DNA from: Deltaproteobacteria bacterium
GTDB lineage: Bacteria > Desulfobacterota > Desulfarculia > Adiutricales > Adiutricaceae
Assembly (NCBI GenBank): GCA_031264145.1
Contig: JAISEK010000076.1
Span: forward strand, 7,843 to 71,842
Length of the DNA stretch: 64,000 nt
Reading direction: 5' to 3'
Below the pieces are notes generated by a model. The model had not been told where the DNA came from. It ran no database searches and saw only the letters and a program-made list of their open reading frames with translations. The first letter of the stretch is position 1. Every line of letters starts with the position of its first letter. Below, piece by piece: positions 16,998 to 43,009 of the stretch. The translations under genes were made by a program, and so were the position numbers.

Positions 16998-18695
16998 TTG
17001 GCGGGCCGCAAGGGGCCCTCCCGGGCCAGTGACCCCCTGGCCGCCTCCGAGACCGGGGCGGTCCGGCGCGAGAGGGGGGGGCGCCTCTCCGTGGCCCTGG
17101 TCTGGCCTGGCTCCTACCGCACCGGCATGTCGTCCCTGGGCTTTCTGTGGGTCTACCGCTTCCTGGCGGGGAGCCCGGCGGCCCTGGGCGAGCGCTTCTT
17201 CGCCCTTGACCCGCCCCAGGGCCGGCCCCTGTCCCTGGAGAGCCGCCGGCCCCTGGACGGCTTTGACCTCATAGCAGCCTCCCTGGTGCTGGAAAACGAC
17301 TACTGGCTCCTCCTGGACCTCCTGGACCGGGCCGGGATGCCCGTCGAGCGCCTGGGGCGGCGGGGCCGCGGGCCCATGGTCCTGGCCGGCGGCGTGGGCG
17401 TCTGGTCCAACCCCTGGCCGGTCATGCCCTTCGTGGATCTGGTCCTGGCCGGGGAGGGCGAGGCCCAATGGCCTAGGCTCCTGGAATGCTTCCGGGAACC
17501 AGGGTTTCCGGGCCTGGACCACGGGGAGAGGCTGGCCCTTATACAGGCGAGGGTGCCCGGGGCCCTGGCCCCCGGCCTCCTGCCCGAGGGCCCGGAAGGC
17601 TGGCGGCTGGCGGCCCCGGTGAGGCCGGCCTTCCTGGAATGGCCCTTCGGCCCAGGGGAGACGCCCCCCTCGTCGCCCATCCTGACCCCGCTGGCCGAGT
17701 TTCCCGAGACCACCCTGGTCGAGATCAGCCGCGGCTGCCCCTGGGGCTGCCGCTTCTGTCTGGCCGGCCACCTGTACCGTCCCCACCGGCCCTGGTCCCC
17801 TGGGGCCGTCCTCGGGGCGGCCGCCTCGATGAGGCCCAGGGGCGGCCGGGTGGGGCTGGTCAGCCCGGCCGTGGCCGACCACCCGGAGCTGGGGGCCATC
17901 TTCGAGGGCCTCCGGGAGCGGGAGGCCTCCGTCGGGGTCTCCTCGATGCGGCTGTCGGCCCTGACCGAGCCCCTGGCCAGGCGCCTCTCCCTGGCCGGCC
18001 TCAGGGCCCTGGCCGTGGCCCCCGAGGCCGGGAGCCAGGGCCTGAGGGACTCCATCAACAAGAACCTGTCCGAGCCGGAGATCCTGGAGTCGGTCAGGAT
18101 CCTTTCCGCCTTCGGCCTCCGGCGTCTGAAGCTCTACTTCATGATCGGCCTCCCCGGCGAGAGGCGCGAGGACCTCGAGGCCCTGGCGGAGCTGGTGGGC
18201 AGGATCTCCAGGGCGGTCAGGATAGGCCGCGGGGGGCCCCGCCTGGCCGTCTCGCTCTCTAACTTCACCCCCAAGCCCCACACGCCCCTCGAGGGCCGGC
18301 CGGTCCTGGACGAGGCCACCCTGGCGCGGAGCGGCCGGCTGGCCGAGGGCCTTCTCAGGAGGCTGGGCGGCCTCGAGGTCCGGCTGGACCCGCCCAAGTG
18401 GACCATCGTCCAGGCCCTCCTGGCCAGGGGCGGGCCGGAGAGCCACCTCCTGGTGAGGGCCCTGATGGCCGTCCGGGGCCGGCCCGGGCCGGCCCTCAGG
18501 CTCATAGGCTACGGGCCGGGCCATCCGGCCCACCGGCCCTGGGAGGGCCCCAGGCCCTGGCGGATCGTGGCCCCCAGGGCGGGCCTGCCCTATCTGGCCG
18601 AGGAGGAACGTCTGGCCGGCCAGGGCCGGCCCTCGCCGCCCTGCCCAGGCGGGGGTGGCTGCGGCCGCTGCCTGGCCTGCGCCGAAGCGGGGTAG
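16998..18695 (+). CDS. radical SAM protein (TIGR03960-like, B12-binding-like N-domain)
   Basis: CxxxCxxC cluster RGCPWGCRFC. The N-terminal VALVWPGSYRTGMSSLGFLWVY resembles the family as I recall it. Start codon uncertain (TTG 16998 or GTG 17029). Confidence 0.78.
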   Translation: MAGRKGPSRASDPLAASETGAVRRERGGRLSVALVWPGSYRTGMSSLGFLWVYRFLAGSPAALGERFFALDPPQGRPLSLESRRPLDGFDLIAASLVLENDYWLLLDLLDRAGMPVERLGRRGRGPMVLAGGVGVWSNPWPVMPFVDLVLAGEGEAQWPRLLECFREPGFPGLDHGERLALIQARVPGALAPGLLPEGPEGWRLAAPVRPAFLEWPFGPGETPPSSPILTPLAEFPETTLVEISRGCPWGCRFCLAGHLYRPHRPWSPGAVLGAAASMRPRGGRVGLVSPAVADHPELGAIFEGLREREASVGVSSMRLSALTEPLARRLSLAGLRALAVAPEAGSQGLRDSINKNLSEPEILESVRILSAFGLRRLKLYFMIGLPGERREDLEALAELVGRISRAVRIGRGGPRLAVSLSNFTPKPHTPLEGRPVLDEATLARSGRLAEGLLRRLGGLEVRLDPPKWTIVQALLARGGPESHLLVRALMAVRGRPGPALRLIGYGPGHPAHRPWEGPRPWRIVAPRAGLPYLAEEERLAGQGRPSPPCPGGGGCGRCLACAEAG

Positions 18696-18985
18696 GCGGG
18701 GGAATTTCCCATGGGGGCGGGGATTCCAGGCGGAAGTCCCCTTCGGGGACTGGCTGACGGGTCTAATATGCAGAAGTTTTCCAGAAAAGGGACTCCATGC
18801 GGAATGGGCGGGATTATGGCCGGGTGACGCCGGCCGCCATTGGGGCGCAGGTCTGACGATCGATCCTGCTTGGGCCAAGGGAATAAAAGCGTTTTGCTGG
18901 GCTGCTCGGAATCTTTGATGATGGGCAGGTCTTTGGCGGCTATGGAGCGGAGCCGCGACGTAGATGGCGTGAACGGGTGGCCGGA

Positions 18986-19355
18986 ATGAGGTATCTGCTC
19001 GATGCCAAAGTCATCATCCATTGCCTCGACGGTTTGGGCGAGGCGGACGAATTGGTTGGGCACTTGGGCGAGAACCATCTTTACGCCAGAGTCGCCACCA
19101 GGATTGGGTCGTTGCGCAATAGACGCCTTGCGGCGGAGCATGGGCAAAACGTCAGTTAATTTTGGCCGATCTGTCCGTCCTGCCTGTAGGCCAGGAAGAT
19201 GGTCGAGTGACCGTCGCCATCATGGACGGGGTGAAATTGAAAATGCCAGATCCGATCATCGCCGCGACAGCGTGAGTCGCCGGCTCGACTCCGGTCAGCT
19301 CGGCCGGCACATTGCCGGATTAGTCATGCGACCATTTATCCGGATCTACCGCTGA
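18986..19355 (+). pseudogene. vapC: PIN-domain toxin VapC, disrupted by frameshifts/stops (short vapB-like 3' remnant at ~18828-18989)
   Basis: MRYLLDAKVIIHCLDG... (PIN N-terminus) in one frame, MPDPIIAATA then a stop in a second frame, and GRHIAGLVMRPFI (compare RHFxxIPGLxV) in a third. An upstream ORF ends in an ATGA overlap with the ATG, as in vapBC pairs. Confidence 0.45.
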
Positions 19356-20246
19356 CGTTTTTTGCAAATCATTTCGACAGTCAGTATATCACCAAATGAT
19401 TTCAGAACGTCTCATCTTTGCGAGTCCCAGGCGGTACCAGATCGATGTTTTTCTGACAGGCCAAACTCTTTTTAATGGCCTGGTGCCCGTGACGCATAAG
19501 GAGTGCTTACTTATAGCTTGAGCTTTCAGGGGCTACAGCAAGGAGTATCATCCTGATCATCTCAGATCGTCATCGGCATTCTTGTCCAGATTTTTCTTCT
19601 TAGGCCAAATTTTACTTGCCGTCCGGTCGTTTTCCGTTCATCATGCGGTACGTCTACTCCTGCATGCATGTGAATGGAGACAGGACATATGGGTGGGGAC
19701 ACGGTTTGTCGGGGAATGCCGTCACCATATCCTTGCTCATATTTGCTCGGCGTCAAGTCTGACCCGCGCCTTGCGATTGAGCCCTTGGCGACTTTGTCGT
19801 CTGTCAGTATCGTAAGCAAAGATATGTTGCCATCCTCCAAAATTCTGATGTTCATCTGGAAGCAGTATCCAGGAGCCCATGTCTCACGTCGGCCTCTTGC
19901 CCTTAATCTCGCTTGTCGCCGTCTGAAGCGTGGAAACGCCAACGACGTTTCCGGCCACGGCGAAGACTTGGCGTTATTGGCTCTTTCCCCTGTTCGCTAG
20001 ACTATGGGCTCTTGACCGTATCCTGGACAATACCTATAATATCTTGGATAGGAAGGGACATCATGGCGATAAACACCGCTATGTCTCGGGTCCGCTTGGT
20101 CGATTGAGCGAAAATCGCCTCCTGGCCAGACGGGCAGGTGGCTACAGTTGTGCTTTGGGATCTTTTGGCCCTTCCAATGGGATGGGAGGAATGCGTCTGT
20201 TCCCTTGACCTTGACTGAAATCAAGGTGTTTCCCTGTCAAGATACC

Positions 20247-21410
20247 ATGAAACTACGGCAGCTTCACATCAAAGGCTTCAAATCCATCGATGGCGATTTG
20301 GGACAGCTCGTTCCCTTTGAGGATGTCACCGTTTTATTGGGAGCCAATGGGTCCGGTAAGAGCAACTTGCTTTCCTTCATTGAGATGTCACGATCTCTGG
20401 CCAGGCAAGAGTTGGGGGAGTTCGTGGCGAAGCAGGGTGTCAGCCGGCTTCTTTATTATGGACCTCAAAATACAGATGACATATCTTTCATCGCCTCATT
20501 TGATGACGGAGGCATCAGCAGATATGAAGTAACTCTCAAGCGCGGCCTGCCTGACGGGCTTTCTGTGGGCTCTGAGAGAATTGGCTTTGGCCAGTACCAC
20601 CGTGTTGGGGAAAACGTGCCGGCGACATTGCCTCAAGATGAATATGGGGCGTCTGTCCTGGCTGAGAGCTATTATCTGCCTAAAGGTCAAAGAGGTGAAT
20701 CAACTCTTGCTGATGACGAAAACGAAACTGGCCGGCTTATTTATGACTTTTTGTCACGCATTCGTATATATCAATTTAATGACACATCGGAAACCGCCAA
20801 AATAAGGTACCGCAACTATGTGGACGATGCTAAGTATTTACGCCATGACGCTTCCAATTTGGCGGCTTTTTTAAAGATGCTGAAGGATAACTCCGCCTAT
20901 AAAAAATATTACAACCGTATCGTCAGACATATTCAGCGTGTCATGCCCCAATTTAAGGATTTTGATTTTGAACCCATTCCTGGAAACCAAGAACATGTCC
21001 GCCTAAATTGGAAGGATTCCTTCGGTAGTGGTTATTTGTTCGATCCGCACCAGATATCCGATGGATCTTTGCGTTTCATGGCCTTGGCGACATTGTCGTT
21101 GCAGCCCCCAGATTTATTGCCCAGACTCATTGTCCTTGACGAGCCGGAATTGGGACTCCATCCGGCAGCCATCACGGAACTGGGTGGACTTGTCAGAGCC
21201 GCCGCCAGGAATACTCAAGTGATCCTGTGCACTCAATCCACCCGTCTGATTGACGAGTTTGACCTCCAAAACTTGGTAATAGTCGAGCGCGACCGCATGA
21301 GACACTGTTCCATATTCAAAACGCTCAATGCGGAACAGTTTGGAGACTGGCTGGCCCGCTACAGTCTCTCCGAACTTTGGGAAAAAAACGTGATTGGCGG
21401 CCAGCCATGA
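20247..21410 (+). CDS. SMC/RecF/OLD-like ABC-type ATPase (AAA_15/AAA_21-like)
   Basis: MKLRQLHIKGFKSI start. Walker A LLGANGSGKSN; signature-like ISDGSLRFMALA; Walker B LIVLDEPELGLHP; H-loop-like ILCTQS. About 200 aa are inserted between Walker A and the signature. Lower GC than flanking genes. Confidence 0.85.
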   Translation: MKLRQLHIKGFKSIDGDLGQLVPFEDVTVLLGANGSGKSNLLSFIEMSRSLARQELGEFVAKQGVSRLLYYGPQNTDDISFIASFDDGGISRYEVTLKRGLPDGLSVGSERIGFGQYHRVGENVPATLPQDEYGASVLAESYYLPKGQRGESTLADDENETGRLIYDFLSRIRIYQFNDTSETAKIRYRNYVDDAKYLRHDASNLAAFLKMLKDNSAYKKYYNRIVRHIQRVMPQFKDFDFEPIPGNQEHVRLNWKDSFGSGYLFDPHQISDGSLRFMALATLSLQPPDLLPRLIVLDEPELGLHPAAITELGGLVRAAARNTQVILCTQSTRLIDEFDLQNLVIVERDRMRHCSIFKTLNAEQFGDWLARYSLSELWEKNVIGGQP

Positions 21411-22099
21411 TCCGCTTGCATATTACCGCTGAAGGGAAGACAGAGCTAAATTTCGCCAAAAAAGTACTTGCCCCGTATCTAGCCGGCCACAACGTTTTTG
21501 CTGATGAGCGTTGTGTCCTGACAGGCAAGAACAGACGCGCGGCCCAGGAGCATAGAGGGGGGCTGCTGAGCTATGGGAAGGCCAAAAAGGATATTTTGGC
21601 CTGGTTGAAGGAAGATCACGGAAATGAGTGTCGCTTTACCACCATGTTCGATTTGTATGCGCTGCCAGATGACTTTCCAGGCTACGATGAAGCCAGATTT
21701 CAAGTTGATCCATACAAAAAAGTCGAAATCATCGAAAATTTTATGGCGAGCGACATAAATGACAGTCGCTTTATTCCTTATGTCCAGTTGCATGAATTCG
21801 AGGCGCTAATTCTTGCTGACCCGCGACAACTTGAGTGGGAATATCTGGAACATGACAAGCCTATCCTAAACCTGATATCCATGGTCGGCGGCCAGAATCC
21901 TGAGTTCATCAATGACGGCAAGGATACAGCCCCATCCAAGCGTATTCTCAAAGAAATACCTGAATATAACAAAGCTACCGCTGGCCCGGCGGTAGCGGAG
22001 AAAATTGGTTTGCCAGTGCTTCGCGCCAAATGCGGCCATTTTCACGATTGGCTGACCGTCTTGGAAAATCTTGGAAATACGCAATCTCGGTGCCGATAA
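21407..22099 (+). CDS. DUF4276-like / Toprim-like putative nuclease partner of the upstream ATPase
   Basis: ATGA overlap with the ATPase stop (21407-21410). MIRLHITAEGKTELNF (EGxxE), TTMFDLYALP and QLHEFEALILADP. Assigned to DUF4276 from memory of the family pattern, not from a search. Confidence 0.7.
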   Translation: MIRLHITAEGKTELNFAKKVLAPYLAGHNVFADERCVLTGKNRRAAQEHRGGLLSYGKAKKDILAWLKEDHGNECRFTTMFDLYALPDDFPGYDEARFQVDPYKKVEIIENFMASDINDSRFIPYVQLHEFEALILADPRQLEWEYLEHDKPILNLISMVGGQNPEFINDGKDTAPSKRILKEIPEYNKATAGPAVAEKIGLPVLRAKCGHFHDWLTVLENLGNTQSRCR

Positions 22100-22346
22100 G
22101 CGCGCCAACATTTTCGACAGGATAGTTTCGACTGAGGCTGCAGGCACCTTCCCACAGGACGACAGATTCCCCTAGGCAGGAATTGCGTTTCCGTTTTCTG
22201 GGTGCCATGTGGCCTTCAAGGCAGGGGCCTTTCCAAGGCGTGAATCTGTCCGCGGAACAATTTCGCGACGCAGGGAAAGATCCCGGCCTGGAAATCTATG
22301 CCCCATGGGGGAGATCGGCTTCAGTTTGGGCGGGGAAAGTGATAAT

Positions 22347-23246
22347 ATGGCCCCGTCGGTGGGCCTCCTGGGGATTGGGCGCCTGGGCCGGAGGGCCCTG
22401 GCGAGGGCCGCCGCAGTGCCCGGCCTGGCCCTGATCGCCCTGGGTGCCGAGCCGGCCCGCCAGGGCCAGTCAGGCGAGGGTATCGGCCCCGGGGAGCGGT
22501 CCCGGCTGCTTGAGGCCCTCTCGGGCCTGGATTTCGCCGTCCTGGTCTGCTCCCTGGACTCGGCCGCCGACCGAAGGCTCGTCGATTCCGTCCTGGGGTG
22601 CCTGCCAGCCCCCGACAGGGCGCCCATGATGGTCTCCGTCGTCTCCCGGGGCAGCCTCTCCCAGTCCGGCTGGCGGCCCGTCTTCCGAAGGCTCCTGGCG
22701 GCCAGCCGGGCGGCTGTGGATCTCTGGAGCCGACAGGGCCTCCTGGTCCAGGGCGGCCGGGTGTTCGAGGCCAGGGAGCGCCTGGCCGATCTGGTGTCCG
22801 GCCTGGCCGAGGGCCTGGCCGAGGTGCTGGCCCGGCCCATGGAGATGGTCCTGGACCCGTCCGACCTCAGGGCCGCGCTGGCCTTTCCCGGCCGCCTGGC
22901 CTGGGGGCTGGGCCAGGCCAGCGGCCCCGACAGGGCCCGCAGGGCCCTGGACCGGGCCCTGGCCTCGGGGGCCTATCCGCCAGAGAACCTCCTGGGGGCC
23001 CAGTGCCTCCTGGTCCTGACCATAGGCGACCCCGGCCTCAGGCTGGGCGACTTCGAGTACCTCAACCGGCGTCTGGCCGCCCTGGCCGGCGAGAGGGCCA
23101 GGCTCTTCGCCGGCCTGGCCCACGACGCGGCCCTGGCACAGGCCGGCGGGCTCAAGGTGTTTTTCCTGGCCACCGGCCTCCCCGGCCAGGGTACGGGCGA
23201 CCGGGCCGCCCTGTTCAGGGCCGGGCTCAGGGAATGGAGAATCTGA
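22347..23246 (+). CDS. divergent FtsZ/tubulin-like paralogue lacking the GGGTGTG nucleotide-binding loop
   Basis: By-eye alignment to the window's own FtsZ. GIGRLGRRA matches GIGGCGNNA; MMVSVVSRG matches LIVSVVILP; LDPSDLRAAL matches LDFADIRSAL. GLGQASGPDRARRAL...LLVLTIGDPGLRLGDFEYL...LKVFFLATGL matches GFGQASGEGRGLRAV...LLINIIADDIKLSEFEGI...LKVTVIATGL. Alternative start 22209. Confidence 0.7.
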   Translation: MAPSVGLLGIGRLGRRALARAAAVPGLALIALGAEPARQGQSGEGIGPGERSRLLEALSGLDFAVLVCSLDSAADRRLVDSVLGCLPAPDRAPMMVSVVSRGSLSQSGWRPVFRRLLAASRAAVDLWSRQGLLVQGGRVFEARERLADLVSGLAEGLAEVLARPMEMVLDPSDLRAALAFPGRLAWGLGQASGPDRARRALDRALASGAYPPENLLGAQCLLVLTIGDPGLRLGDFEYLNRRLAALAGERARLFAGLAHDAALAQAGGLKVFFLATGLPGQGTGDRAALFRAGLREWRI

Positions 23247-24259
23247 TGGCTTTTCACGCCCCCGGGTCATGGGAAGGACGGGCCGGGAGCCTGATGCTCG
23301 TAGGCTGGGAGGGGAACGGCCTCCAGGAGCCCCTGGGGCTCTTGGAGGATTTCGGCCCCGCCGGGCTGGTCTTCTTCAGGCGCAACTACCCGCCCGGCGG
23401 CGGTCCCGAGCTGAGGGAACAGCTGGCGAGGATTGGGGCCAGGGCCCTGGAGGTCCTGGGGCGGCCCGTCCTCTTGGCCCTCGATGGCGAGGGGGGGCTG
23501 GTCAAGAGGCTCCCTCCGCCCCACGTCCAGTTGCCGGCGGCCCCCATGGCGGCCCTGATGGGCCCAGGTAGGATTTTCGAGATGGCCCTGGAGGCCGGCC
23601 GGGAGATGGCCCTTCTGGGCTTCAACCTAAACCTGGCCCCGGTCCTGGACCTCCAGGTCGAGGGCGGCATAATGGCCGGCCGTTCCTACGGTCCCGACCC
23701 GGGCCTGGTGGCCGGGTGCGCCAGGGCCTTCATGGAGGGCTTCCGGGCGGCGGGCGTCCTGACCTGCGCCAAGCATTTTCCAGGCCTGGGGGCGGCCATG
23801 GAGGATCCCCACTCGGTCCTGCCGTCCATAGGCCTGGGCCCGGAGGCCATGGCGCCGCATCTCAGGCCCTTCGGGGAGCTGGCCGCGTCCGGGCTGCCCA
23901 TGGTCATGACCAGCCACTGCCTCTACCCCGGCCTGGGGCTGGACCGCCCGGCCACCTTCCACGGGGCCGCGGCGGCCATGCTGCGGGGCCGCCTTTCATT
24001 CGACGGCCCCATCCTCTCGGACGATCTGGAGATGGGCGCCGTGGCCGGGAACCTCCCGGTCGGCGAGGCGGCCGTCCAGGCCGTCCAGGCCGGGCACGAC
24101 CTGGTCCTGGTCTGCCGTCGCCGCCGGGCGATAGAGGAGGCCCACGGGGCGCTGGCGCTGGCCCTGGCCTCCGGGCGCCTCGACGCCTCGCGCCAGCTGG
24201 CCTCCCTTGGCCGGCTTGGCCGTCTTCTGGGCCCCGGCGCGACGGGCGACGACCTCTGA
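23234..24259 (+). CDS. nagZ: beta-N-acetylhexosaminidase NagZ (GH3)
   Basis: Motifs GFNLNLAPVLDL, AKHFPGLGAAMEDPHSVLP and ILSDDLEMGAV. A second in-frame ATG at 23246 overlaps the upstream stop (TGATG). Confidence 0.85.
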   Translation: MENLMAFHAPGSWEGRAGSLMLVGWEGNGLQEPLGLLEDFGPAGLVFFRRNYPPGGGPELREQLARIGARALEVLGRPVLLALDGEGGLVKRLPPPHVQLPAAPMAALMGPGRIFEMALEAGREMALLGFNLNLAPVLDLQVEGGIMAGRSYGPDPGLVAGCARAFMEGFRAAGVLTCAKHFPGLGAAMEDPHSVLPSIGLGPEAMAPHLRPFGELAASGLPMVMTSHCLYPGLGLDRPATFHGAAAAMLRGRLSFDGPILSDDLEMGAVAGNLPVGEAAVQAVQAGHDLVLVCRRRRAIEEAHGALALALASGRLDASRQLASLGRLGRLLGPGATGDDL

Positions 24260-26972: not shown

Positions 26973-27092
26973 TAGTGCCTTGTTTTTCTTGTTTGACTGG
27001 TGCCGGCATCTCGGCTTAATCTCCGTAGCCAACGTTGGCTCAGAGTAAAGATAGCCATTTTTGCTAGATATTCTATGAAAAGAAAGTCTTTA
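26973..27092 (+). mobile_element. MITE-like repeat, copy E (diverged)
   Basis: TAGTGCCTTGTTTTTCTTGTTTGACTGGTG... matches the left end of copy C (42902..). Right end GAAAAGAAAGTCTT is degenerate. Confidence 0.45.
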
Positions 27093-27696
27093 GAGTAGAC
27101 TGGTTTTATGAAATTATCTTTCCAGCAATAATAAGACTGCAAATAAATTCTTTAGGATATCTATATTCATGTACATTTTTATTAACTTTTGATTAAATAT
27201 CTTAAAATAATATGCAAAATAATTAAAAATTGTTATGCTAGAATATAATTATATTTAAATATAAAACATAGTAAAATATTATTGTTACGCTCACTATAGC
27301 ATGTAATTTAACGGATCATTCGTGGACTATATCTAACTTTTATCTCGCACCTTGGTCGAGTTGTCCAGCAGGCAAGATTTTGTTAACGAAACATAGATGC
27401 GACCAAAAATTGGAAAATGAGAAAAGGCGACATGGAAATCCTGCTTGCCTTCGCATCCAAGTATGGGTATTATGAGTATTATATGGGCGACAGCCCTCCA
27501 GTAGACAAGGTCGTGGCCTTAGTGTGGCCTCGATGCCGACGGGCAAGGCCACGGTCCGGCGTTAGTCGACCTTTGGTGGCTTGGGGCAGGGTGCGGGATC
27601 GCCGCGGACTCGGAACTTGCCTGACTCTCGCGTTGCCCTAAACTGGGCTGGGTCATGCTGGAAGCCATCGCTGGCCCACCGGGTGATGGCCCGCTG

Positions 27697-27752
27697 AAGG
27701 TGCGTCACCTGGCCTGGGCCCAAAAAGGTGCGTCACCTGGCCTGGGCCCAAA
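27697..27752. repeat. perfect 28 bp tandem duplication (AAGGTGCGTCACCTGGCCTGGGCCCAAA x2)
   Basis: Read directly: 27697-27724 equals 27725-27752. Confidence 0.95.
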
Positions 27753-28043
27753 GGAGTGACCGCGGCATATGGAACTGCTGTCCATCTAAAAACCTAAAAA
27801 TGACCAATCCTTATACCTAATTATCAAGGCTAAATGCAGCAGAACCCAAGGAGCTCGGTTTTTACTTGCCCGTCAACATTAGAAAAGATATCTCCTCATA
27901 AAAATTATCAAGCCAATGGAGGTGTTGGACGATGACGACTTGACATATCTTAAATTAATAATATTATGGATTATGATATATATTTTTTTTATAAAATATC
28001 ATAAAACTATTGCCCTTGCAAGGAAAATTATAGGGAGAATGTG

Positions 28044-28463
28044 ATGTATAAAATCTTTATCGCTATTTTAGCTGTTACTTTTTTATTAAATATTAGTAAT
28101 AATATATATGCAGAAGATAATCAATTTACTACTGGAATAGATCATTGTTTAAATAATGCAACTGAATATGTAGAATTTACTGCTTGTTACTCAGAAGCAG
28201 CCAGTTATTGGGATAATTTTTTGAATGAAAATTATCAGAAAGTAGTAGATCTATGTAATAATGATAATGGCAATGGAGAGCAATGTTTAAAAATTCTTCG
28301 TAATGCTCAACGGAGCTGGTTAGCTTATAGAGATGGTATGATAAAGACAATTTATGAAATTATGGGTAATGGCCAAGTAACAGAAATGCAGGCTGCTGAA
28401 TTTCTATATTCATCAACGCAAGATCAAGCACTAATTTTAGGAACATTAGCAAGTTTGCCATAA
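28044..28463 (+). CDS. DUF1311 / LprI-like (lysozyme-inhibitor family) exported protein
   Basis: Signal peptide MYKIFIAILAVTFLLNISNNIYA. C-terminal L..AQRSWLAYRDGM pattern of DUF1311 (recalled). RBS GGGAGA upstream. Extremely AT-rich codons in a GC-rich genome. Confidence 0.65.
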   Translation: MYKIFIAILAVTFLLNISNNIYAEDNQFTTGIDHCLNNATEYVEFTACYSEAASYWDNFLNENYQKVVDLCNNDNGNGEQCLKILRNAQRSWLAYRDGMIKTIYEIMGNGQVTEMQAAEFLYSSTQDQALILGTLASLP

Positions 28464-28593
28464 ATAAAACTAAATTTTTAGTTATTTATGAAATTAATAT
28501 TTATATAGTTATTAATGTAGTGCTAATAGTTTACTAGCGCTACATTTTATTAGATTAATGCCAATAAATTGCTCAAAATTATTCTAGAGGAAA

Positions 28594-28706
28594 CTAGCAT
28601 CTTGTCTTTCTAGATTTGGCAGGTGAAGATACCTGTTCTTCGTCCTCATGGCGCAGTACCCAGGACCAATCGGCACTGCGCTGTTTTCGAAGAAAGGATG
28701 GTGGTT
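28594..28706 (+). mobile_element. MITE-like repeat, copy D (diverged, full length)
   Basis: CTAGCATCTTGTCTTTCTAGATTTGGCAGGTGAAGATACCT aligns with copy C CTAGTACCTTGTTTTTCTTGATTTGTCTGGTGAAGATACCT. Similar length, with a degenerate right end. Confidence 0.5.
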
Positions 28707-28896
28707 TAGTGGCCTTTTTTAAAATATAAATGATATCAATAAGTTATATAATTGAGAAATAGCGGACGGAGAAATAGGCGGGCGGAGCAGGCCCCGTGCT
28801 CTCTGGACCGGGTGACGGAGTACCCCGGCGGCGGCGGAGCTACGGTAACGTGACCCAAACGCACATGGGGCCTTCTTTGAATTTTCTCCTGGACCT

Positions 28897-28941
28897 CAAA
28901 AACAAAAAGCCCCCTCGGTATGCGCAATCTCAGCGGGGGCT
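28897..28941 (-). terminator. possible Rho-independent terminator for the minus-strand ABC-F/small-ORF unit
   Basis: Minus strand reads AGCCCCC-20 nt-GGGGGCT followed by TTTTTGTTTTT. The long loop weakens the call. Confidence 0.35.
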
Positions 28942-28960
28942 GTTGACGGTTGCTAAGGCT

Positions 28961-29176
28961 TCAGTATTTTTTCCTCTTGTCCAGCAACCGCTGCAGGTCC
29001 TCGATGGTCTCGCAGGGACCATCGTCTTGGCTTGGCTTTCTGGACTCGGCCTTGTCGCCTTCCCCCTCAAAGAGCCGCATGAAGGCGGCCAGGCCCACGG
29101 GACCAAGCTCCTTGCGCAAGGCCTCGATACCCCTTTTGCGTAGGGTCTCGGTGTCGCTCCAGTCAACGATGTCCAT
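28961..29176 (-). CDS. small hypothetical protein (71 aa), antitoxin-like family LGPVG..F..FE.G.GD
   Basis: RBS AGGAGA lies 5 nt before ATG 29176. MDIVDWSDTETLRKRGIEALRKELGPVGLAAFMRLFEGEGD... resembles a widespread small-protein family (recollection only). Confidence 0.45.
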   Translation of the reverse strand: MDIVDWSDTETLRKRGIEALRKELGPVGLAAFMRLFEGEGDKAESRKPSQDDGPCETIEDLQRLLDKRKKY

Positions 29177-34842: not shown

Positions 34843-35138
34843 GGGCCAGTTGGGCACCAATGTCCGTGGACGCCGGAAGGGGCATCGGTAAAGACCACGG
34901 CGAATGGGGCGACAGGCTGGCTTATCATCCTCACTTGGTATTTCTTCGCTGCTTTTTCAATTTTGATACATTTCGTGACTTGTTATGGCCTTGCTAGACA
35001 TGGCTTACACCATAAGACGACTCATAAAAATTGGCCAAGCCGCGAAATACAATTTTGGATTGCTAATAAGGCAAAGGCGGGCTTAGGGTAAATTCCAAAT
35101 TTAACCGAGATTCCCCAAAATCGACTTTCAAGGGTTCT

Positions 35139-35248
35139 AGTACCTCGTTTTTTCTTGGAATGTCGGGCAAAGTCGGCTCAATTTACTTATGAACAGACAG
35201 TTTAGTCCGAGGTATCGTCACCAGACAAATCAAGAAAAACAAGATACT
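35139..35248 (-). mobile_element. MITE-like repeat, copy B
   Basis: AGTACCTCGTTTTTTCTTGGAATGTCGGGCAAAGTCGGCTCAATTTACTTATGA...CAAGAAAAACAAGATACT is nearly identical to the reverse complement of copy C. Confidence 0.7.
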
Positions 35249-36443
35249 GGCGCAATTATATGATTGAACCTGTCATGCCGTAATCAAGTCCATCGCGGTT
35301 GGAAAACACCGCGCCAAAACATTAAATATAAAAGCATAGCCTCAAACATTAATTTGTTTAAGTGGTATTGTTTTAAAAATAGGCTTTTTGCTAAAAGAGA
35401 TTAAAATCATTGATGCTTAAAACAAAACAAGTTTCAAGAAAGCAAAAAAATCTTCAGAGTCAGCTCCAAGGGGGTCAGGTGAAAAGCCTCAGTCTTATAG
35501 CCGTTTCTTAATTTTTCTTCCTAGCCTTGAGCCATTGAGAGCGGAAAAGTAGCCAGAAACTATAGCCCAAAGACATAGATAATGCCATTTTATATTCTTA
35601 AGACATCAAAACCCTTGAAATAAAACATATTTCAAGGGTGTGTATGGTATTATCTGTAGCATCTGGTTTATGAAATTCATGCGGATCTTCACAGGATCTT
35701 GTGGAAGACCTTGCCAGGCCCTCCACAAGATCTTGTGAACCACCGCAAAAAGTTTAACCCGATTTTCGATTGGAGTCAAGAAAAATTTCAGCACAGGTTA
35801 GCAATATTGGAAAAGGAATTGTCAATAAAGTACGGCATGTTTCAGTTAATAGCAACAATTTTTGCCGGCGGGGTCGGCCTAGGGGCCATACAACATATTG
35901 GCTTAGACGCCGCCCTGGACTGTAAAGCCTAAACCTACAACGAAGATGACAAACATGAAAATGTAGGTTCTTAAATTCCCTTTTAAATAGCCGCATTTCG
36001 TAGCATGTCAGCCTCATTTCCGCTGTCAGGCGACGTCCTGTTCGTTAAACCGTTAAAACACCCGAGGCTTCCTGGATAAAGCCTAAATTTTGGCCAAAAA
36101 TATGTAAATATACTCAGCTCGAACGATCAGGTCCAAAATTATTGACTATCAGTGCCCCCAAAAAAGGCTTTTCCTGGATCCGTCAGCTGACGGCGGGGGC
36201 TAGGGCCGGACAAAATATCTTGATGGGGAAAACGAGGGGCAAAATATGTCGAAAGCCGATGCGGGCCCGTAAATAAAGCAATGGCCGCCCAAGACGGAGT
36301 GATAGGGGAGTCCTTCCCTCCACGGCGGCACAGGCCCGTCTGGATTAGGCTATCAGGCACATTTTTCGTGTCAATTTGGACCGAACGTATCCAAAATTAT
36401 GGCCGCTTGAGCAGAAATAAACCTCATTTGCCCCTGGAGCAAG

Positions 36444-38909: not shown

Positions 38910-40364
38910 TCAATGCCATTTTGCCCAGGAGGCCTGCCTTTGATCGAGTTCGGCCACCAGTTTCGGGTCAAGGGGATGTTCGTCAGTTTCGCCGATCAAG
39001 GCCATGGTCCTTTCCCTCAGTCGCTCCTCGATTAGCTTGCCCCCTTTGTTTTTCCAGCTCTCGTGATGGGCCCTCTCGAAAATCTTGGAATAGAATGATT
39101 GCTTGAAGTGCTTGAGGGTGTGTGGCTCCCTCAGGAAATTTCCGCCCGAGCCGACGTTTTTCAGTACCTCCAGGGCCAGCGTCTCCTCGCTTAGGGGGAT
39201 TCCTTCCATGAACCTGTCGAGCATGCCCAATATCTCATGGCCCAGGACGAAATATGCGGGCGAGACTGTGCTGCCGTGATCCAGCCAGCTGTGGGTGTCG
39301 TGGACCAGGCCCTGGCCGACGGTTGCGGCCACCAAATCCTGGATGGCCCCCTCGACGCCGGCCTGGATGTCCACGACCTGTGAGTCGGTGCAGCCTGCCG
39401 TCCCGAAGAAGGGCAGCCTGTAGAACTGGCTCAGCTGGGCCATCGCGCCGACCATCATCGACAACTCGATGGCCCCGTAGGAGAAGACGGTGGTCCTCAG
39501 ATCCATGATGGTCGCGAAGGCCCCGTAGATGAAGGGGGCCCCGGGGTTGGCCGCCTGATGGAGGACCAGCCCCGACAGCGACTCGGCGCTGGCCTGGACT
39601 ATGGTCCCGGCCAAGGTGGCCGGGGAGGTCCCCCCGGCCTGGATGCCGGGAAAGTTTATCAGTGGGATCTTCTTCTCGGCGCAGAAGATGATCTTCTCCA
39701 CCACCGGATCGTAATAGAGGAGCGGGCTCGTGGGATCGGCCAGGTGAAGCAGGAAGGGGTTTCGCTCGAATTCCTTGACCCCTCCCTGGCAAAGCACGGC
39801 CATCTCGTAAATCTCGTTGAGGCTACGCCTATCGGCACAGCAGCAGACCGTGGGCTTCCGGCAGAATTCCATGGCCAGCCTGGAGGCCACCTTGTCGGCC
39901 ATGGTGGGCGGCAGATCGTCGCACAGTCCCAAGGTCATGTTCCAGGTGTAGGTGCCCAGCTTGTCGCACAGACGGCTCATGGTCTTGACGTGCCTGCTTT
40001 CGCAAGGCGAGCGGTCACCGGTCTCAGGGTCAAGATAGTTGATGCAGTCGATGGTCGGCCCGTACCACGTCCTGCGATCTTCCAGATGGACCGTGCGGCC
40101 GTTGTCCCGATCGCCTAAGACGATCCTCTTGGGGGCCTGGCCCAGGGCCTTCTCGACCACGGCAGCCGGAAAACGGACCTGGGTGCCGTCGACCTGGCAA
40201 CCGACGGAGGCCAGCATCTCCAGTCCCTTGGGGTGGTTCAGCCTCACGCCCAGGCGCTCAAGTATTTCAAGGGTGGCCAGATGGAACCGCTCCATCTGTT
40301 CTTGGCTCAGTATTTGCAATTTGGGAGTGAAATTAAGCTCCTCGACCAATAACCCTCGCTTCAT
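38910..40364 (-). CDS. MttB-superfamily (trimethylamine methyltransferase family) protein, non-pyrrolysine type; likely quaternary-amine:corrinoid methyltransferase
   Basis: Full-length uninterrupted ORF. Conserved core ...PLINFPGIQAGGTSPATLAGTIVQASAESLSGLVLHQAANPGAPFIYG. Start chosen at ATG 40364 with RBS GGAGGA (ORF extends to 40382). Confidence 0.82.
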   Translation of the reverse strand: MKRGLLVEELNFTPKLQILSQEQMERFHLATLEILERLGVRLNHPKGLEMLASVGCQVDGTQVRFPAAVVEKALGQAPKRIVLGDRDNGRTVHLEDRRTWYGPTIDCINYLDPETGDRSPCESRHVKTMSRLCDKLGTYTWNMTLGLCDDLPPTMADKVASRLAMEFCRKPTVCCCADRRSLNEIYEMAVLCQGGVKEFERNPFLLHLADPTSPLLYYDPVVEKIIFCAEKKIPLINFPGIQAGGTSPATLAGTIVQASAESLSGLVLHQAANPGAPFIYGAFATIMDLRTTVFSYGAIELSMMVGAMAQLSQFYRLPFFGTAGCTDSQVVDIQAGVEGAIQDLVAATVGQGLVHDTHSWLDHGSTVSPAYFVLGHEILGMLDRFMEGIPLSEETLALEVLKNVGSGGNFLREPHTLKHFKQSFYSKIFERAHHESWKNKGGKLIEERLRERTMALIGETDEHPLDPKLVAELDQRQASWAKWH

Positions 40365-41001
40365 GGTTTCCTCCAGGCCCATTTTGGGCGTTGGCCCCTT
40401 CGTCCGTGGACTTTTCGGGCCAGTTGGTGGTTTGGCAAGGCTGGATTTAATCCAATTGGCTTGCCTGTTTTGACCAAATATAGAGTATGTTTAAAATATT
40501 TGTATCTATAACTATATTAATATAATAAAAAATATAGTAAAAAATTATATATAGTTTAAATTATAGCTGTCTATAAATAAGTTTAATAAGATATAGATAT
40601 CATATAGTTAATTTATAATTATAATAAATTTCTACAGATTTAGGTATCCATCCATTTACAGCTTTGTTAATTTTAAAAAGCAATATTTATACCAACCGCC
40701 AAATGACGATCGGCCAAGATGCGTCGATGGGCTAACTCCCGCATTGGCTTTGGTTTTAAACCCTGCCTTGTCGGTATTGGGAGTCTCTGACGGTGATTTG
40801 GGTCGCGATGGCGGGGAAGATACAAAAATATTTGTAAAATAAATTTGTAAATCACAAAAAGATTTGTCATGTGTCCTGGCCAGGGAAAATGCCAATGATT
40901 AGGAGCACCCAGTCTCTTTTAGAAGGTCCTAAAATGACGGGCCAACTGGTATAATGGATGGATACTAATGCCTGTTCTGGAGGATTTGGCCAAAATGCTA
41001 G

Positions 41002-41035
<34 letters not shown>

Positions 41036-41328
41036 CATGACTTAGGGGGTCGGTTTTTCCGGTCCTCATAAACAACCAGGCCCGACATCAATTGGACGAT
41101 TTGATGCCGGGCCTTTGGTATTTCCATCTCTGAATAGGATTAAGGCAGGAGGTCGAAGGTGCTGGTTTCAGGTTGGGCAAGATTGGGAAGGCCGCTGGCG
41201 TCTATGCAATAGTCAAAGAATATAGAAATATAATTATTGTTTTATTTATAAATCAATATATTTAATTAAATAATGTATATCATAATAAATATGGTAAAAA
41301 TATAAAAATAAACATATGAGGTGTTGAT

Positions 41329-42756
41329 ATGTATCAAAGTATTTTAGGAAATATAAGGCCAGTTTTGGATGAATTATTTATGGGAGTATTGATAATAGAC
41401 ACTGAGGAAAAAATTTGTTACTACAATAAGTTTATGTCTAGAATGGATGAAAACGATCTCGATGAGGTCATGGGCTACAGGATATGCGAGGTTTACTCGG
41501 TCAAGGACTCCGATAGCCCCACGGTCGAATCGATCAGGACAGGACAGCCAATCCTGGGGCGCTACATGCATTACAAGACGGCCAGGGGTAGGCAACTGGC
41601 CACATTGAATTATTCCTACCCCCTGTTCGTCTCCGACCAGCTGGTCGGCGCCATCTGCATGTGCCTTGACTGCACGAGCCTGTACTCGTATGTCGCCCAG
41701 GACAGGGAGCCGGAATCACCTGTCGTCCCCCTGGCGCTCCATGACCAGAAGGTCGAGTTCAAGGATTTGATAGGCAAGAACCCGATCTTCAGGGAGGCGG
41801 TTGAGGTGTCCAAAATAGCGGCCAGCGGCCCTAGCCCGGTCATGCTGGTGGGGGAGACCGGCACCGGCAAGGATCTTTTTGCCCAGGCCATCCACAATTA
41901 CAGCCCCAGGGCCAAGGAGAGGTTCGTGCCCATAAACTGCTCGGCCATTCCCGAGCCTCTTTTGGAGGGACTCCTGTTTGGGACGACCAGGGGCGCCTTC
42001 ACTGGGGCGGTGGACAAGTCAGGGCTTTTCGAGCACGCTTCCGGGGGCACCATATTCCTTGATGAGGTCCAGTCAATGCCCATAACCCTCCAGGCCAAAC
42101 TCTTGAGGGTCATCCAGGACAAGCGGGTCAGGAGGGTGGGGGGACTGGTCGAGAACAAGGTGGACGTGAAGTTCATAAGCGCCGTTGGGGGACACCCCAG
42201 GACGCTCGTGGACGAATTGAAACTGAGGGCCGATCTGTACTACCGCCTGGGGGTCATACAGGTCGTCATCCCGCCCTTGCGGGAGCGTCCAGAGGACATT
42301 CCGGAATTGACGACGCATTTTGCAGGAAAAATAGCCGGAAAGTTGGGCCGCGAGATATCCGGCATCCACTCGGGTGTTCTACAGCACCTTAAGGGACGGA
42401 CCTGGCCCGGAAACGTCCGTGAGCTGGAGCACGTCCTTGAGAGCTCCCTGAACTTCGTCCCAAAGGGCGAGAGCCTTGATCTCAGGCATCTGAAGAGGTC
42501 GGGCCGGCATCTGCAGTCCTTGCCCTCATTCCAGAATCCCCAGTCCGGGCTGGGCGGGCCTCAGGCCGGTGCCTATAGTTTTCCCCAAGGCTACTCCCTG
42601 AAGGATGATTTGGTAAATTATGAAAAACAGAAAATAATAACCGCTATAAAATTAAACAACGGCAACATTAGTAAAAGTGCTAATACATTAGGTATCAGTC
42701 AGCAATTATTGGTTTATAAAATAAGTAAATATAAAATAAATAAAATTATTATTTAA
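41329..42756 (+). CDS. sigma-54-dependent transcriptional activator (PAS-like sensor + AAA+ + Fis-type HTH)
   Basis: Walker A GETGTGKDLFAQAIH, GAFTGA loop, VRELEHVLE. C-terminal HTH NISKSANTLGISQQLLVYKI. Confidence 0.9.
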   Translation: MYQSILGNIRPVLDELFMGVLIIDTEEKICYYNKFMSRMDENDLDEVMGYRICEVYSVKDSDSPTVESIRTGQPILGRYMHYKTARGRQLATLNYSYPLFVSDQLVGAICMCLDCTSLYSYVAQDREPESPVVPLALHDQKVEFKDLIGKNPIFREAVEVSKIAASGPSPVMLVGETGTGKDLFAQAIHNYSPRAKERFVPINCSAIPEPLLEGLLFGTTRGAFTGAVDKSGLFEHASGGTIFLDEVQSMPITLQAKLLRVIQDKRVRRVGGLVENKVDVKFISAVGGHPRTLVDELKLRADLYYRLGVIQVVIPPLRERPEDIPELTTHFAGKIAGKLGREISGIHSGVLQHLKGRTWPGNVRELEHVLESSLNFVPKGESLDLRHLKRSGRHLQSLPSFQNPQSGLGGPQAGAYSFPQGYSLKDDLVNYEKQKIITAIKLNNGNISKSANTLGISQQLLVYKISKYKINKIII

Positions 42757-42901
42757 AGTAACATTATTTATCTGATTGAGTCTCGATAATTTATTCAACG
42801 ACAGCCTCCAGGAAACTCATCGAGGGCCAGGCACGACAGTCCGGGTCAGATGCCATCATGTTAATCCTCCCAGAGCCTACTGGCAGATAGAAAACATCCC
42901 T

Positions 42902-43009
42902 AGTACCTTGTTTTTCTTGATTTGTCTGGTGAAGATACCTCGAGTAAACTGTCTCATCATAAGTAAATTGAGCCGACTTTGCCCGAAATTCCAAGAAAAA
43001 CAAGGTACT
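42902..43009 (+). mobile_element. MITE-like repeat, copy C (reference copy; perfect 18 bp terminal inverted repeats)
   Basis: Left AGTACCTTGTTTTTCTTG (42902-42919) is the exact reverse complement of right CAAGAAAAACAAGGTACT (42992-43009). Confidence 0.75.

Follow-up and report, generated by a model that had tools for sequence, protein, structure and literature searches.

A catalogued ABC ATPase/Toprim gene pair, HEC-01, on a low-GC island of a Desulfobacterota genome: sequence features, distribution and a proposed defence mechanism

HEC-01 (Hma-embedded candidate 01) was defined as an ABC ATPase plus a TOPRIM-like protein embedded in Hma systems, and its predicted metal site was aligned to that of BpOLD in the same study (Payne et al., bioRxiv 10.1101/2024.01.29.577857). 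In BpOLD this site comprises E400 and E404 after beta-1, D455xD457 after beta-3, T506 and E508 where the helical domain starts, and K562 inside that domain (PMC6755086). The related fused HEC-04 requires both Walker A and the Toprim acidic residues. The Menshen paper (PMC12065111) explicitly placed the domain family DUF4276 in the Toprim superfamily and connected it with Mad4, and the Nature paper on PARIS counts MADS3-4 and AbiL as ABC-ATPase/TOPRIM systems and uses DUF4276 in its domain annotation (PMC11464382). In environmental surveys HEC-01 belongs to the more abundant of the candidate systems (10.1101/2024.09.26.614923), and no mechanism has been published for it. Here we describe a two-gene cassette in a 64,000-nucleotide (nt) stretch of DNA (hereafter the window) from a Deltaproteobacteria bacterium of the family Adiutricaceae, Desulfobacterota (assembly GCA_031264145.1, contig JAISEK010000076.1, positions 7,843 to 71,842 of the forward strand). 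The pair is very probably a member of HEC-01, an ATPase plus a predicted Toprim nuclease; it is a typical copy of a catalogued and partly tested family, not a new kind of system, and HEC-01 is itself still a candidate. A preliminary description of the locus had proposed a split OLD/PARIS-like module that might already be listed as a screen hit, a caveat that proved justified, the pair being HEC-01 of PADLOC.

Both genes are on the + strand. Gene 1 (HEC-01A) extends from ATG 20247 to TGA 21410 and encodes 387 amino acids (aa), and gene 2 (HEC-01B) from ATG 21407 to TGA 22099, encoding 230 aa. Based on Pfam, PADLOC and AlphaFold2 (AF2)/Foldseek, HEC-01A (20247..21410) is an ABC ATPase of the AAA_21 / SMC-Rad50-OLD head type and HEC-01B (21407..22099) a DUF4276 Toprim-type predicted nuclease; the deposited products, on a 75.7-kb contig of a Deltaproteobacteria MAG (metagenome-assembled genome), are MDR1110252.1 (“AAA family ATPase”) and MDR1110253.1 (“DUF4276 family protein”), respectively. 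Membership in HEC-01 is carried by nearly full-length matches to both PADLOC models and by the adjacency and common orientation of the genes: HEC-01A matched model PDLC04175 with E=1.7e-111 (residues 2-387 on profile positions 5-362 of 363) and HEC-01B matched PDLC04188 with E=3.6e-74 (residues 1-223 on positions 12-227 of 230). The other PADLOC models found gene 1 with far weaker scores (AriA-type 3.6e-26, mad3 5.5e-26, a local Old match 3.8e-16 and PtuA 5.8e-15), and besides HEC-01B no PADLOC defence model matched gene 2. Among the NCBIfam models, gene 1 gave only a sub-threshold hit to MAD3 (E=1.6e-22, 80.3 bits vs a cutoff of 420) and gene 2 was unmatched. The weak ATPase matches brought MADS, Menshen, PD-T4-4, AbiL and Septu into consideration; all were rejected, as gene 2 fits none of their partner models.

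The start of gene 1 differs between the NCBI call (TTG 20205, giving 401 aa) and the JGI call (ATG 20247), and the family alignment supports the latter. The stop of gene 1 and the start of gene 2 share an ATGA overlap (21407..21410, + strand, read from the sequence), indicating that the two genes are probably translationally coupled. Gene 2 is preceded by GGCGG in the window, and GGAGG is found 8-12 nt before the downstream start in many related loci. The “GG” codons of the ATPase tail are placed where the ribosome-binding site of gene 2 is expected; protein conservation of the tail and constraint on the ribosome-binding site are confounded, because the invariant GG is usually encoded as GGAGG before the gene 2 start. 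A candidate sigma-70-type promoter for the operon (TTGACC, a 17-nt spacer and TATAAT, with 11/12 consensus positions) is located at 20012..20040 on the + strand, 207 nt upstream of gene 1; by consensus match only, it is the sole strong + strand site in the low-GC (guanine plus cytosine) island that holds the pair. Both hexamers are unchanged in a sister metagenome-assembled genome (MAG), in which the neighbouring non-coding DNA is 89.6% identical.

Sequence and predicted fold make HEC-01A an ABC ATPase of the SMC/Rad50/OLD type, much as the preliminary description had it (SMC/RecF/OLD-type). The protein matches AAA_21 (PF13304, E=2.2e-27) and also SMC_N and AAA_15. The motifs recognized beforehand are all at their positions, as are the two open reading frames (ORFs), the overlap and the motifs of gene 2: GANGSGKS at aa 32-39, SDGSLRF at aa 271-277 and LIVLDEPELGLHP at aa 294-306. 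The large spacer noted between Walker A and the signature measures about 230 aa, and a coiled-coil insertion is absent. The ABC residues include Walker A G32xxGxGKS39 (K38), Q176, S271-D-G273, the Walker B pair D298-E299 and the D-loop LGLH305P, all invariant or nearly so among 74 non-redundant homologues, in which the H-loop position T-Q330-S has an invariant Gln330 in place of His. [quoted passage not shown]

Two parts of the ATPase depart from this conserved background in opposite ways. A hypervariable, indel-rich insert at aa 111-150 (20577..20696, + strand, from the alignment of the 74 homologues) is the single hypervariable region of the protein: the frequency of the top residue falls to 0.07-0.39 with gaps up to 0.83, compared with 0.5-0.9 and about 0 elsewhere. 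The window copy has a rare long form of the insert, in which pLDDT is below 50 at aa 118-136. Conversely, the C-terminal tail W368...Y372-S-L-S-E-L-W-E-K-N-V-x-G-G-Q-P387 (21348..21407, + strand) is almost invariant, with a block conservation of 0.85, and its end is likely flexible, because the final 10 residues are predicted with pLDDT below 50. We propose that the insert may be a trigger-sensing surface and that the tail may serve as a partner-docking peptide.

The second protein belongs to DUF4276 (PF14103, E=7.4e-49, 192/192 profile positions), without any other Pfam match, so that both Pfam families named in the preliminary description were found. Its motifs are ITAEGKTE (aa 6-13), FDLY (aa 81-84) and HEFEALILAD (aa 129-138). 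Conservation was followed in 52 divergent representatives (38-58% identity) and in the 74 non-redundant genomic homologues, where E9, E13, G51, G52, D82, Y84 (73/74), E130, E132, S177, R179 and K189 are invariant. The AF2 model is confident (pLDDT 86, predicted template modelling score 0.84), and its best three PDB matches are to the C-terminal Toprim-plus-helical region of Xanthomonas OLD (6njv, 6njw and 6njx; probability 1.00, template modelling (TM) score 0.44-0.50, E about 1e-3), with the OLD-type effector of retron Eco8 at rank 6. These matches support the earlier proposal of a split module, an ATPase with a separate Toprim-like partner. Two landmarks of the Toprim fold are in place: beta-1 (2-8) is followed by the invariant E9, and the invariant G51/G52 follow beta-2 (30-36) after a low-confidence loop. 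At the third, the DxD after beta-3, HEC-01B carries D82-L-Y84, with D82 in 74/74 and Y84 in 73/74 homologues, and E130/E132 are additional invariant acids of this variant-motif protein.

Read along the chain, HEC-01B presents E9xxxE13 after beta-1 (2-8), D82 ending beta-3 (75-82), E130xE132 just after beta-4 and basic residues in the C-terminal helices. The acidic constellation and its spacing appear to mirror the two-metal site of BpOLD, with a sole systematic departure, namely an invariant Tyr in place of the second Asp of DxD. We infer this mapping from motif order and secondary structure, not from superposition.

The two genes are consistently found together. In 91 related loci, of which 11 came from protein look-ups and 80 from species-level genomes, a HEC-01A homologue lies directly upstream of HEC-01B on the same strand in every case (91/91); the 4-nt NTGA overlap is identical in 54/91 and most of the remaining junctions fall within a few nt. 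The pairwise identity matrices of A and B are correlated (r=0.72, a value that 0/999 Mantel permutations reach), and therefore the pair evolves as a unit. The family is large, with more than 4,000 DUF4276 homologues in 90% clusters and 3,458 clusters at 50% identity (E<=1e-3), and HEC-01 relatives were detected in at least 594 species-level genomes of the scanned collection. Proteins at 65-75% identity occur in Desulfobacterota, Lentisphaerota, Verrucomicrobiota, Chlorobiota, Gammaproteobacteria and others, and such identity across unrelated phyla implies that the module moves horizontally. Carriage of HEC-01 by phages was considered and rejected: the family is present in 0/50,697 phage records and in 4 of 2.9 million IMG/VR contigs, and viral structures (BFVD) contained no structural relative of gene 2. 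Plasmids carry it in 13/72,556 cases, all 32-38% identical.

The genomic neighbourhoods of the pair are diverse. In Oligosphaera and Bilophila it is inserted between pglX and pglZ of type 1 BREX, in Bilophila on an element with a relaxase and an integrase; in Electrothrix it stands alone near a PemK toxin-antitoxin (TA) pair; in Solidesulfovibrio it adjoins integrases and a replicase, and in a Desulfospira MAG NERD, UvrD, MZB and helicase genes. The recurrent families in 121 immediate-neighbour ORFs of the species-level loci are GmrSD_N (4), N6_Mtase, PglZ, ResIII, DEAD and HEC-06 (3 each), and HSDR_N, Methylase_S, Eco57I, MmeI_Mtase and PIN (2 each). Overall, about one fifth of the immediate neighbours in more than 70 species are PglZ, PglX, GmrSD/HEC-06, type I restriction-modification (RM), type IIG or PIN proteins. 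Judging from these raw counts, the association of HEC-01 with restriction- and BREX-type immunity is real but partial.

In the window, the operon occupies part of a foreign island (18696..22208, delimited by composition and flanks) that comprises a PIN remnant, a stretch of about 0.9 kb in which no gene is recognisable, and the two HEC-01 genes. GC content is 45-54% from about 18.75 to 22.25 kb vs 70-77% on either side, that is, some 3.5 kb of about 50% GC in a genome of about 73%, in line with the lower-GC island of the preliminary description, and on compositional grounds the island is judged to be horizontally acquired. A radical-SAM gene (ending at 18695) borders it on one side and an FtsZ_C-like gene on the other; the dcw cluster is upstream of this region, and nagZ-like, cdsA and dxr genes are downstream. 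At the borders, neither a tRNA or an integrase nor convincing direct repeats were found. The cargo outside the HEC-01 system includes a frameshifted PIN (VapC-like) toxin remnant (18986..19320, + strand, from stitched fragments) whose pieces lie in three frames, MRYLLDAKVIIHCL... and then ...PDPIIAATA. After stitching it scored 23.1 bits on Pfam PIN, below the cutoff of 23.6 (E=1.2e-4), and no antitoxin was recognised near or upstream of it, so that of the decayed TA pair initially reported only the toxin half is traceable, marginally. Between this remnant and gene 1 (19355-20246), about 0.9 kb of about 50% GC has no recognisable gene; its longest ORF (19565-19942, minus strand, 126-144 aa) has a GC content of 0.51/0.51/0.52 at codon positions one, two and three and no Pfam match, and the segment is probably non-coding or decayed cargo.

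The sister MAG contig JAISAY010000389.1, from assembly GCA_031266425.1, aligns to window positions 19983-23605 with 92.4% identity. It covers only the right-hand part of the island, from 19983 on, with the same junction to the FtsZ_C-like gene, and the shared site and junction imply that the insertion predates the split of the two lineages. Differences between window and sister by codon position are 19/15/53 and 12/12/28 in the HEC-01 genes and 20/11/29 in the flanking host gene; the third-position bias in both HEC-01 genes therefore points to purifying selection. The sister carries a 1-nt frameshift in each HEC-01 gene, at the equivalents of window positions 20867 and 21556 (T6 to T5 and G6 to G7), which may be slippage-type inactivation or assembly error. 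That the sister copy is a pseudogene was considered and downgraded, both frameshifts being in homopolymers.

Taken together, sequence analysis and structure prediction show an intact, apparently co-transcribed, translationally coupled and co-evolving pair of an ABC ATPase and a predicted Toprim-fold protein with complete catalytic motifs on an acquired island. By analogy with OLD, Gabija and PARIS, it can be hypothesized that this pair is a self-contained, horizontally mobile two-component defence module, a reading to which we assign a probability of about 0.6. HEC-01A would dimerise or oligomerise via its ABC head, acting as sensor and scaffold, and would keep HEC-01B inactive, plausibly through the invariant flexible C-terminal tail. 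The insert at aa 111-150 would recognise a sign of infection, which may be an anti-restriction or anti-BREX protein of a phage, because the module is repeatedly embedded in BREX and RM operons. ATP binding or hydrolysis (K38, D298/E299) would then release or activate HEC-01B, which may cut nucleic acid with the metal-dependent chemistry of Toprim enzymes: metal A would be held by E9 and D82 and metal B by E13 and E130/E132, and the residue at the scissile phosphate would be K189 or R179. Cleavage would stop phage replication directly or by abortive infection. The substrate could be DNA, as for OLD and GajA, or tRNA, as for AriB, a choice that the sequence cannot decide.

Several observations weigh against this defence mechanism. 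In the only dedicated test, HEC-01 in E. coli was unprotective against a BASEL subset and classic coliphages (10.1101/2024.01.29.577857), while the report that one cloned HEC-01 cluster from a cold-seep metagenome study protected E. coli B against at least one of T4, T5 and T7 is sparse in details (10.1101/2024.09.26.614923). There is no published biochemistry on DUF4276 proteins, and the chemistry of HEC-01B may differ from that of its presumed relatives, because the canonical Toprim DxD is D-L-Y. The OLD match of gene 2 is only moderate (TM 0.44-0.50, E about 1e-3), and a DUF4276 alignment profile searched against all PDB sequences returned chance-level hits only (RqcH, E about 0.1) and no solved relative, which leaves the comparison of folds and the order of motifs as the basis of the Toprim link. 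In other genomes, the majority of neighbours have no relation to defence (154 families among the 121 ORFs), and the 64-kb window contains no other defence genes, the remaining 39 scanned ORFs being housekeeping. Lastly, the contact between A and B and the roles of tail and insert are themselves inferred.

Part of this evidence would also suit a different reading, in which the pair is a non-autonomous accessory or back-up of a system based on methylation (BREX, Hma, type I RM or MADS-like) and the orphan copy of the window is inert alone: the pair was discovered embedded in Hma systems, it is inside the BREX operons of Oligosphaera and Bilophila, the homologous Mad3/Mad4 are parts of the multi-gene MADS, and HEC-01 alone did not defend in one study. 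Such a dependence is nevertheless unlikely, since BREX and RM genes are missing from the immediate neighbourhood in most of the 80 species-level loci, the stand-alone copies (Electrothrix, Solidesulfovibrio and the window) retain all catalytic residues, the window copy displays a pattern of purifying selection since its split from the sister lineage, and the cloned cluster reportedly protected E. coli B. Tight two-gene operons on mobile islands beside TA genes (the PIN remnant here, PemK in Electrothrix), a sporadic and horizontally transferred distribution and the Pfam label of AAA_21 as a “putative AbiEii toxin, Type IV TA system” domain could instead point to a selfish, TA-like addiction module, a nuclease toxin restrained by the ATPase and maintained by post-segregational killing or island stabilisation. 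The great rarity of the module on plasmids (13/72,556), where addiction modules thrive, and its repeated embedding in BREX and RM operons, which fits immunity better, make this rather improbable, although addiction is compatible with abortive-infection defence and the two are not exclusive.

It is regarded as quite improbable that the window copy is the decaying, now functionless remainder of an old insertion: its ORFs are full length and retain all family-invariant residues, the overlap is intact, the promoter-like site is conserved and substitutions are biased to third codon positions. The frameshifted PIN gene next to it, the 0.9 kb of island without a recognisable gene and the 1-nt frameshifts in both HEC-01 genes of the sister MAG would agree with decay, but the latter, which fall in homopolymers (T6 and G6), may have arisen in assembly. 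A housekeeping pair for DNA repair or chromosome maintenance like RecF/RecN or SbcCD could be suggested by the SMC and Rad50 heads as the best ATPase fold matches and by the location just downstream of the dcw cell-division cluster; the foreign GC, the patchy occurrence across phyla with 65-75% identity between unrelated lineages, the absence of a coiled-coil insertion, the specific hidden Markov model matches to defence-candidate models and the BREX embedding render it highly improbable. A further, doubtful version keeps the defence role and changes its chemistry: HEC-01B would be a distinct Toprim variant and HEC-01A a guard, Tyr84 and HEFE conferring a chemistry or substrate unlike that of OLD (RNA/tRNA cleavage as by AriB, or Tyr nicking), while the insert senses phage anti-BREX or anti-restriction proteins. 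If true, it would explain both the embedding in BREX, RM and Hma and the negative test against phages without triggers.

Other features of the window concern the surroundings of the island. Downstream of gene 2, a block of about 35 nt, CCTTCCCACAGGACGACAGATTCCCCTAGGCAGG (22146-22180), is perfectly conserved in an intergenic region that is 83% identical to the sister MAG overall, and possibly acts in the regulation of the FtsZ_C-like gene that follows downstream. This host gene (22209-23246, + strand) matches only the FtsZ C-terminal domain (E=7e-6), without a tubulin GTPase domain, and in a collection of 5.8 billion proteins its only homologues were itself and the sister-MAG copy. Relatives of the radical-SAM gene in metagenomes are at most 40% identical, none with downstream synteny. 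A defence island in the window was rejected, the PADLOC matches elsewhere in it being only to generic ABC-transporter and sigma-54 activator proteins: from family counts, from which the assignment to individual ORFs was derived, the mad3/AriA/mad8 matches probably belong to two ABC_tran ATPases and a generic domain, and the RtcR matches most likely to the sigma-54 activator. Single ATPase-model matches are not to be taken as defence systems.

The composition of the contig is strongly mosaic. A second patch (27000-29000, 29-46% GC) just after dxr holds a 140-aa ORF (28041-28463, + strand) with a hydrophobic N-terminus and a GC content at third codon positions of 0.16, and is read from its composition as another foreign insertion. 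A low-GC patch at 35000-36000 (39% GC) has no ORF of at least 90 aa, and that at 40000-43000 includes a sigma-54-dependent activator (41329-42756) beside an MttB-family methyltransferase (38910-40382).

HEC-01 is widespread, its mechanism is unpublished and its phenotypes are conflicting. With regard to the window, the result mainly corrects an expectation, as the pair is a member of a catalogued family rather than a new kind of system. The description of the cassette as under-described holds as far as the mechanism is concerned; its existence is catalogued, its Toprim assignment is in print and it was phage-tested twice with opposite outcomes. The additions made here are small, useful as leads but unsurprising to a specialist: the D-x-Y motif, a conserved tail that overlaps the ribosome-binding site, a variable insert at one place only, pairing in 100% of the loci, near-absence from phages, and an island that has persisted across a lineage split. 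For this branch of the ABC-ATPase/Toprim proteins, the obligate coupling, the hypervariable insert, the invariant tail, the D-x-Y motif and the near-absence from phages may serve as handles.

Among the known systems, the effector AriB of PARIS targets tRNA. The window pair resembles PARIS in being a split, two-gene combination of an ABC ATPase with a Toprim effector whose partners co-evolve, as they do in PARIS (PMC11464382), and in the variable sensing parts and conserved catalytic core of an ATPase from the same AAA_15/21 radiation. It differs in its effector, which is DUF4276 and not DUF4435 (gene 2 had no DUF4435 or AriB match at E<=0.1 in Pfam and PADLOC), in the weak and generic match to the AriA model (E=3.6e-26) and in its carriers, PARIS being typically carried by phages and satellites and the HEC-01 family occurring in 0/50,697 phage records. 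With MADS Mad3/Mad4 and Menshen NsnB/NsnC-DUF4276 it shares an AAA_21-type ATPase and a DUF4276 Toprim domain (PMC12065111; PMC11464382), and gene 1 matches the mad3 models (PADLOC E=5.5e-26; NCBIfam MAD3 E=1.6e-22). The MAD3 score, however, is 80.3 bits vs a cutoff of 420, gene 2 has no mad4 or Nsn match, the system has two genes rather than many, and the scan of window ORFs gave no methyltransferase of the mad type and no genuine mad or nsn genes.

The OLD family (Class 1, P2 Old and Ts OLD; Class 2, Bp and Xcc OLD and Gabija GajA) likewise joins an ABC ATPase to a Toprim-plus-helical nuclease. Gabija differs in that neither a GajB/UvrD-like helicase gene nor a fused GajA is present in the island. 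OLD proteins are single fused polypeptides, whereas the window has two ORFs with their own start and stop codons; gene 2 had no Old or Toprim_OLD sequence match and gene 1 only a weak local Old match (E=3.8e-16); an invariant Tyr replaces the second Asp of the Toprim DxD, and the H-loop position of the ATPase carries Gln330. On the other side, the best PDB match of gene 2 is the C-terminal region of Xcc OLD, Ts OLD and GajA are among the matches of the ATPase, and the residue order ExxxE ... D ... (T/E)xE ... K is as in the two-metal site of BpOLD. The closest described system is HEC-01: the window copy lies outside Hma or any other system and its ATPase insert is the rarer long form, but its proteins match both HEC-01 models nearly end to end, in the same order of ABC ATPase and then TOPRIM-like protein, and the published structural link to the BpOLD metal site applies to the window pair as well.

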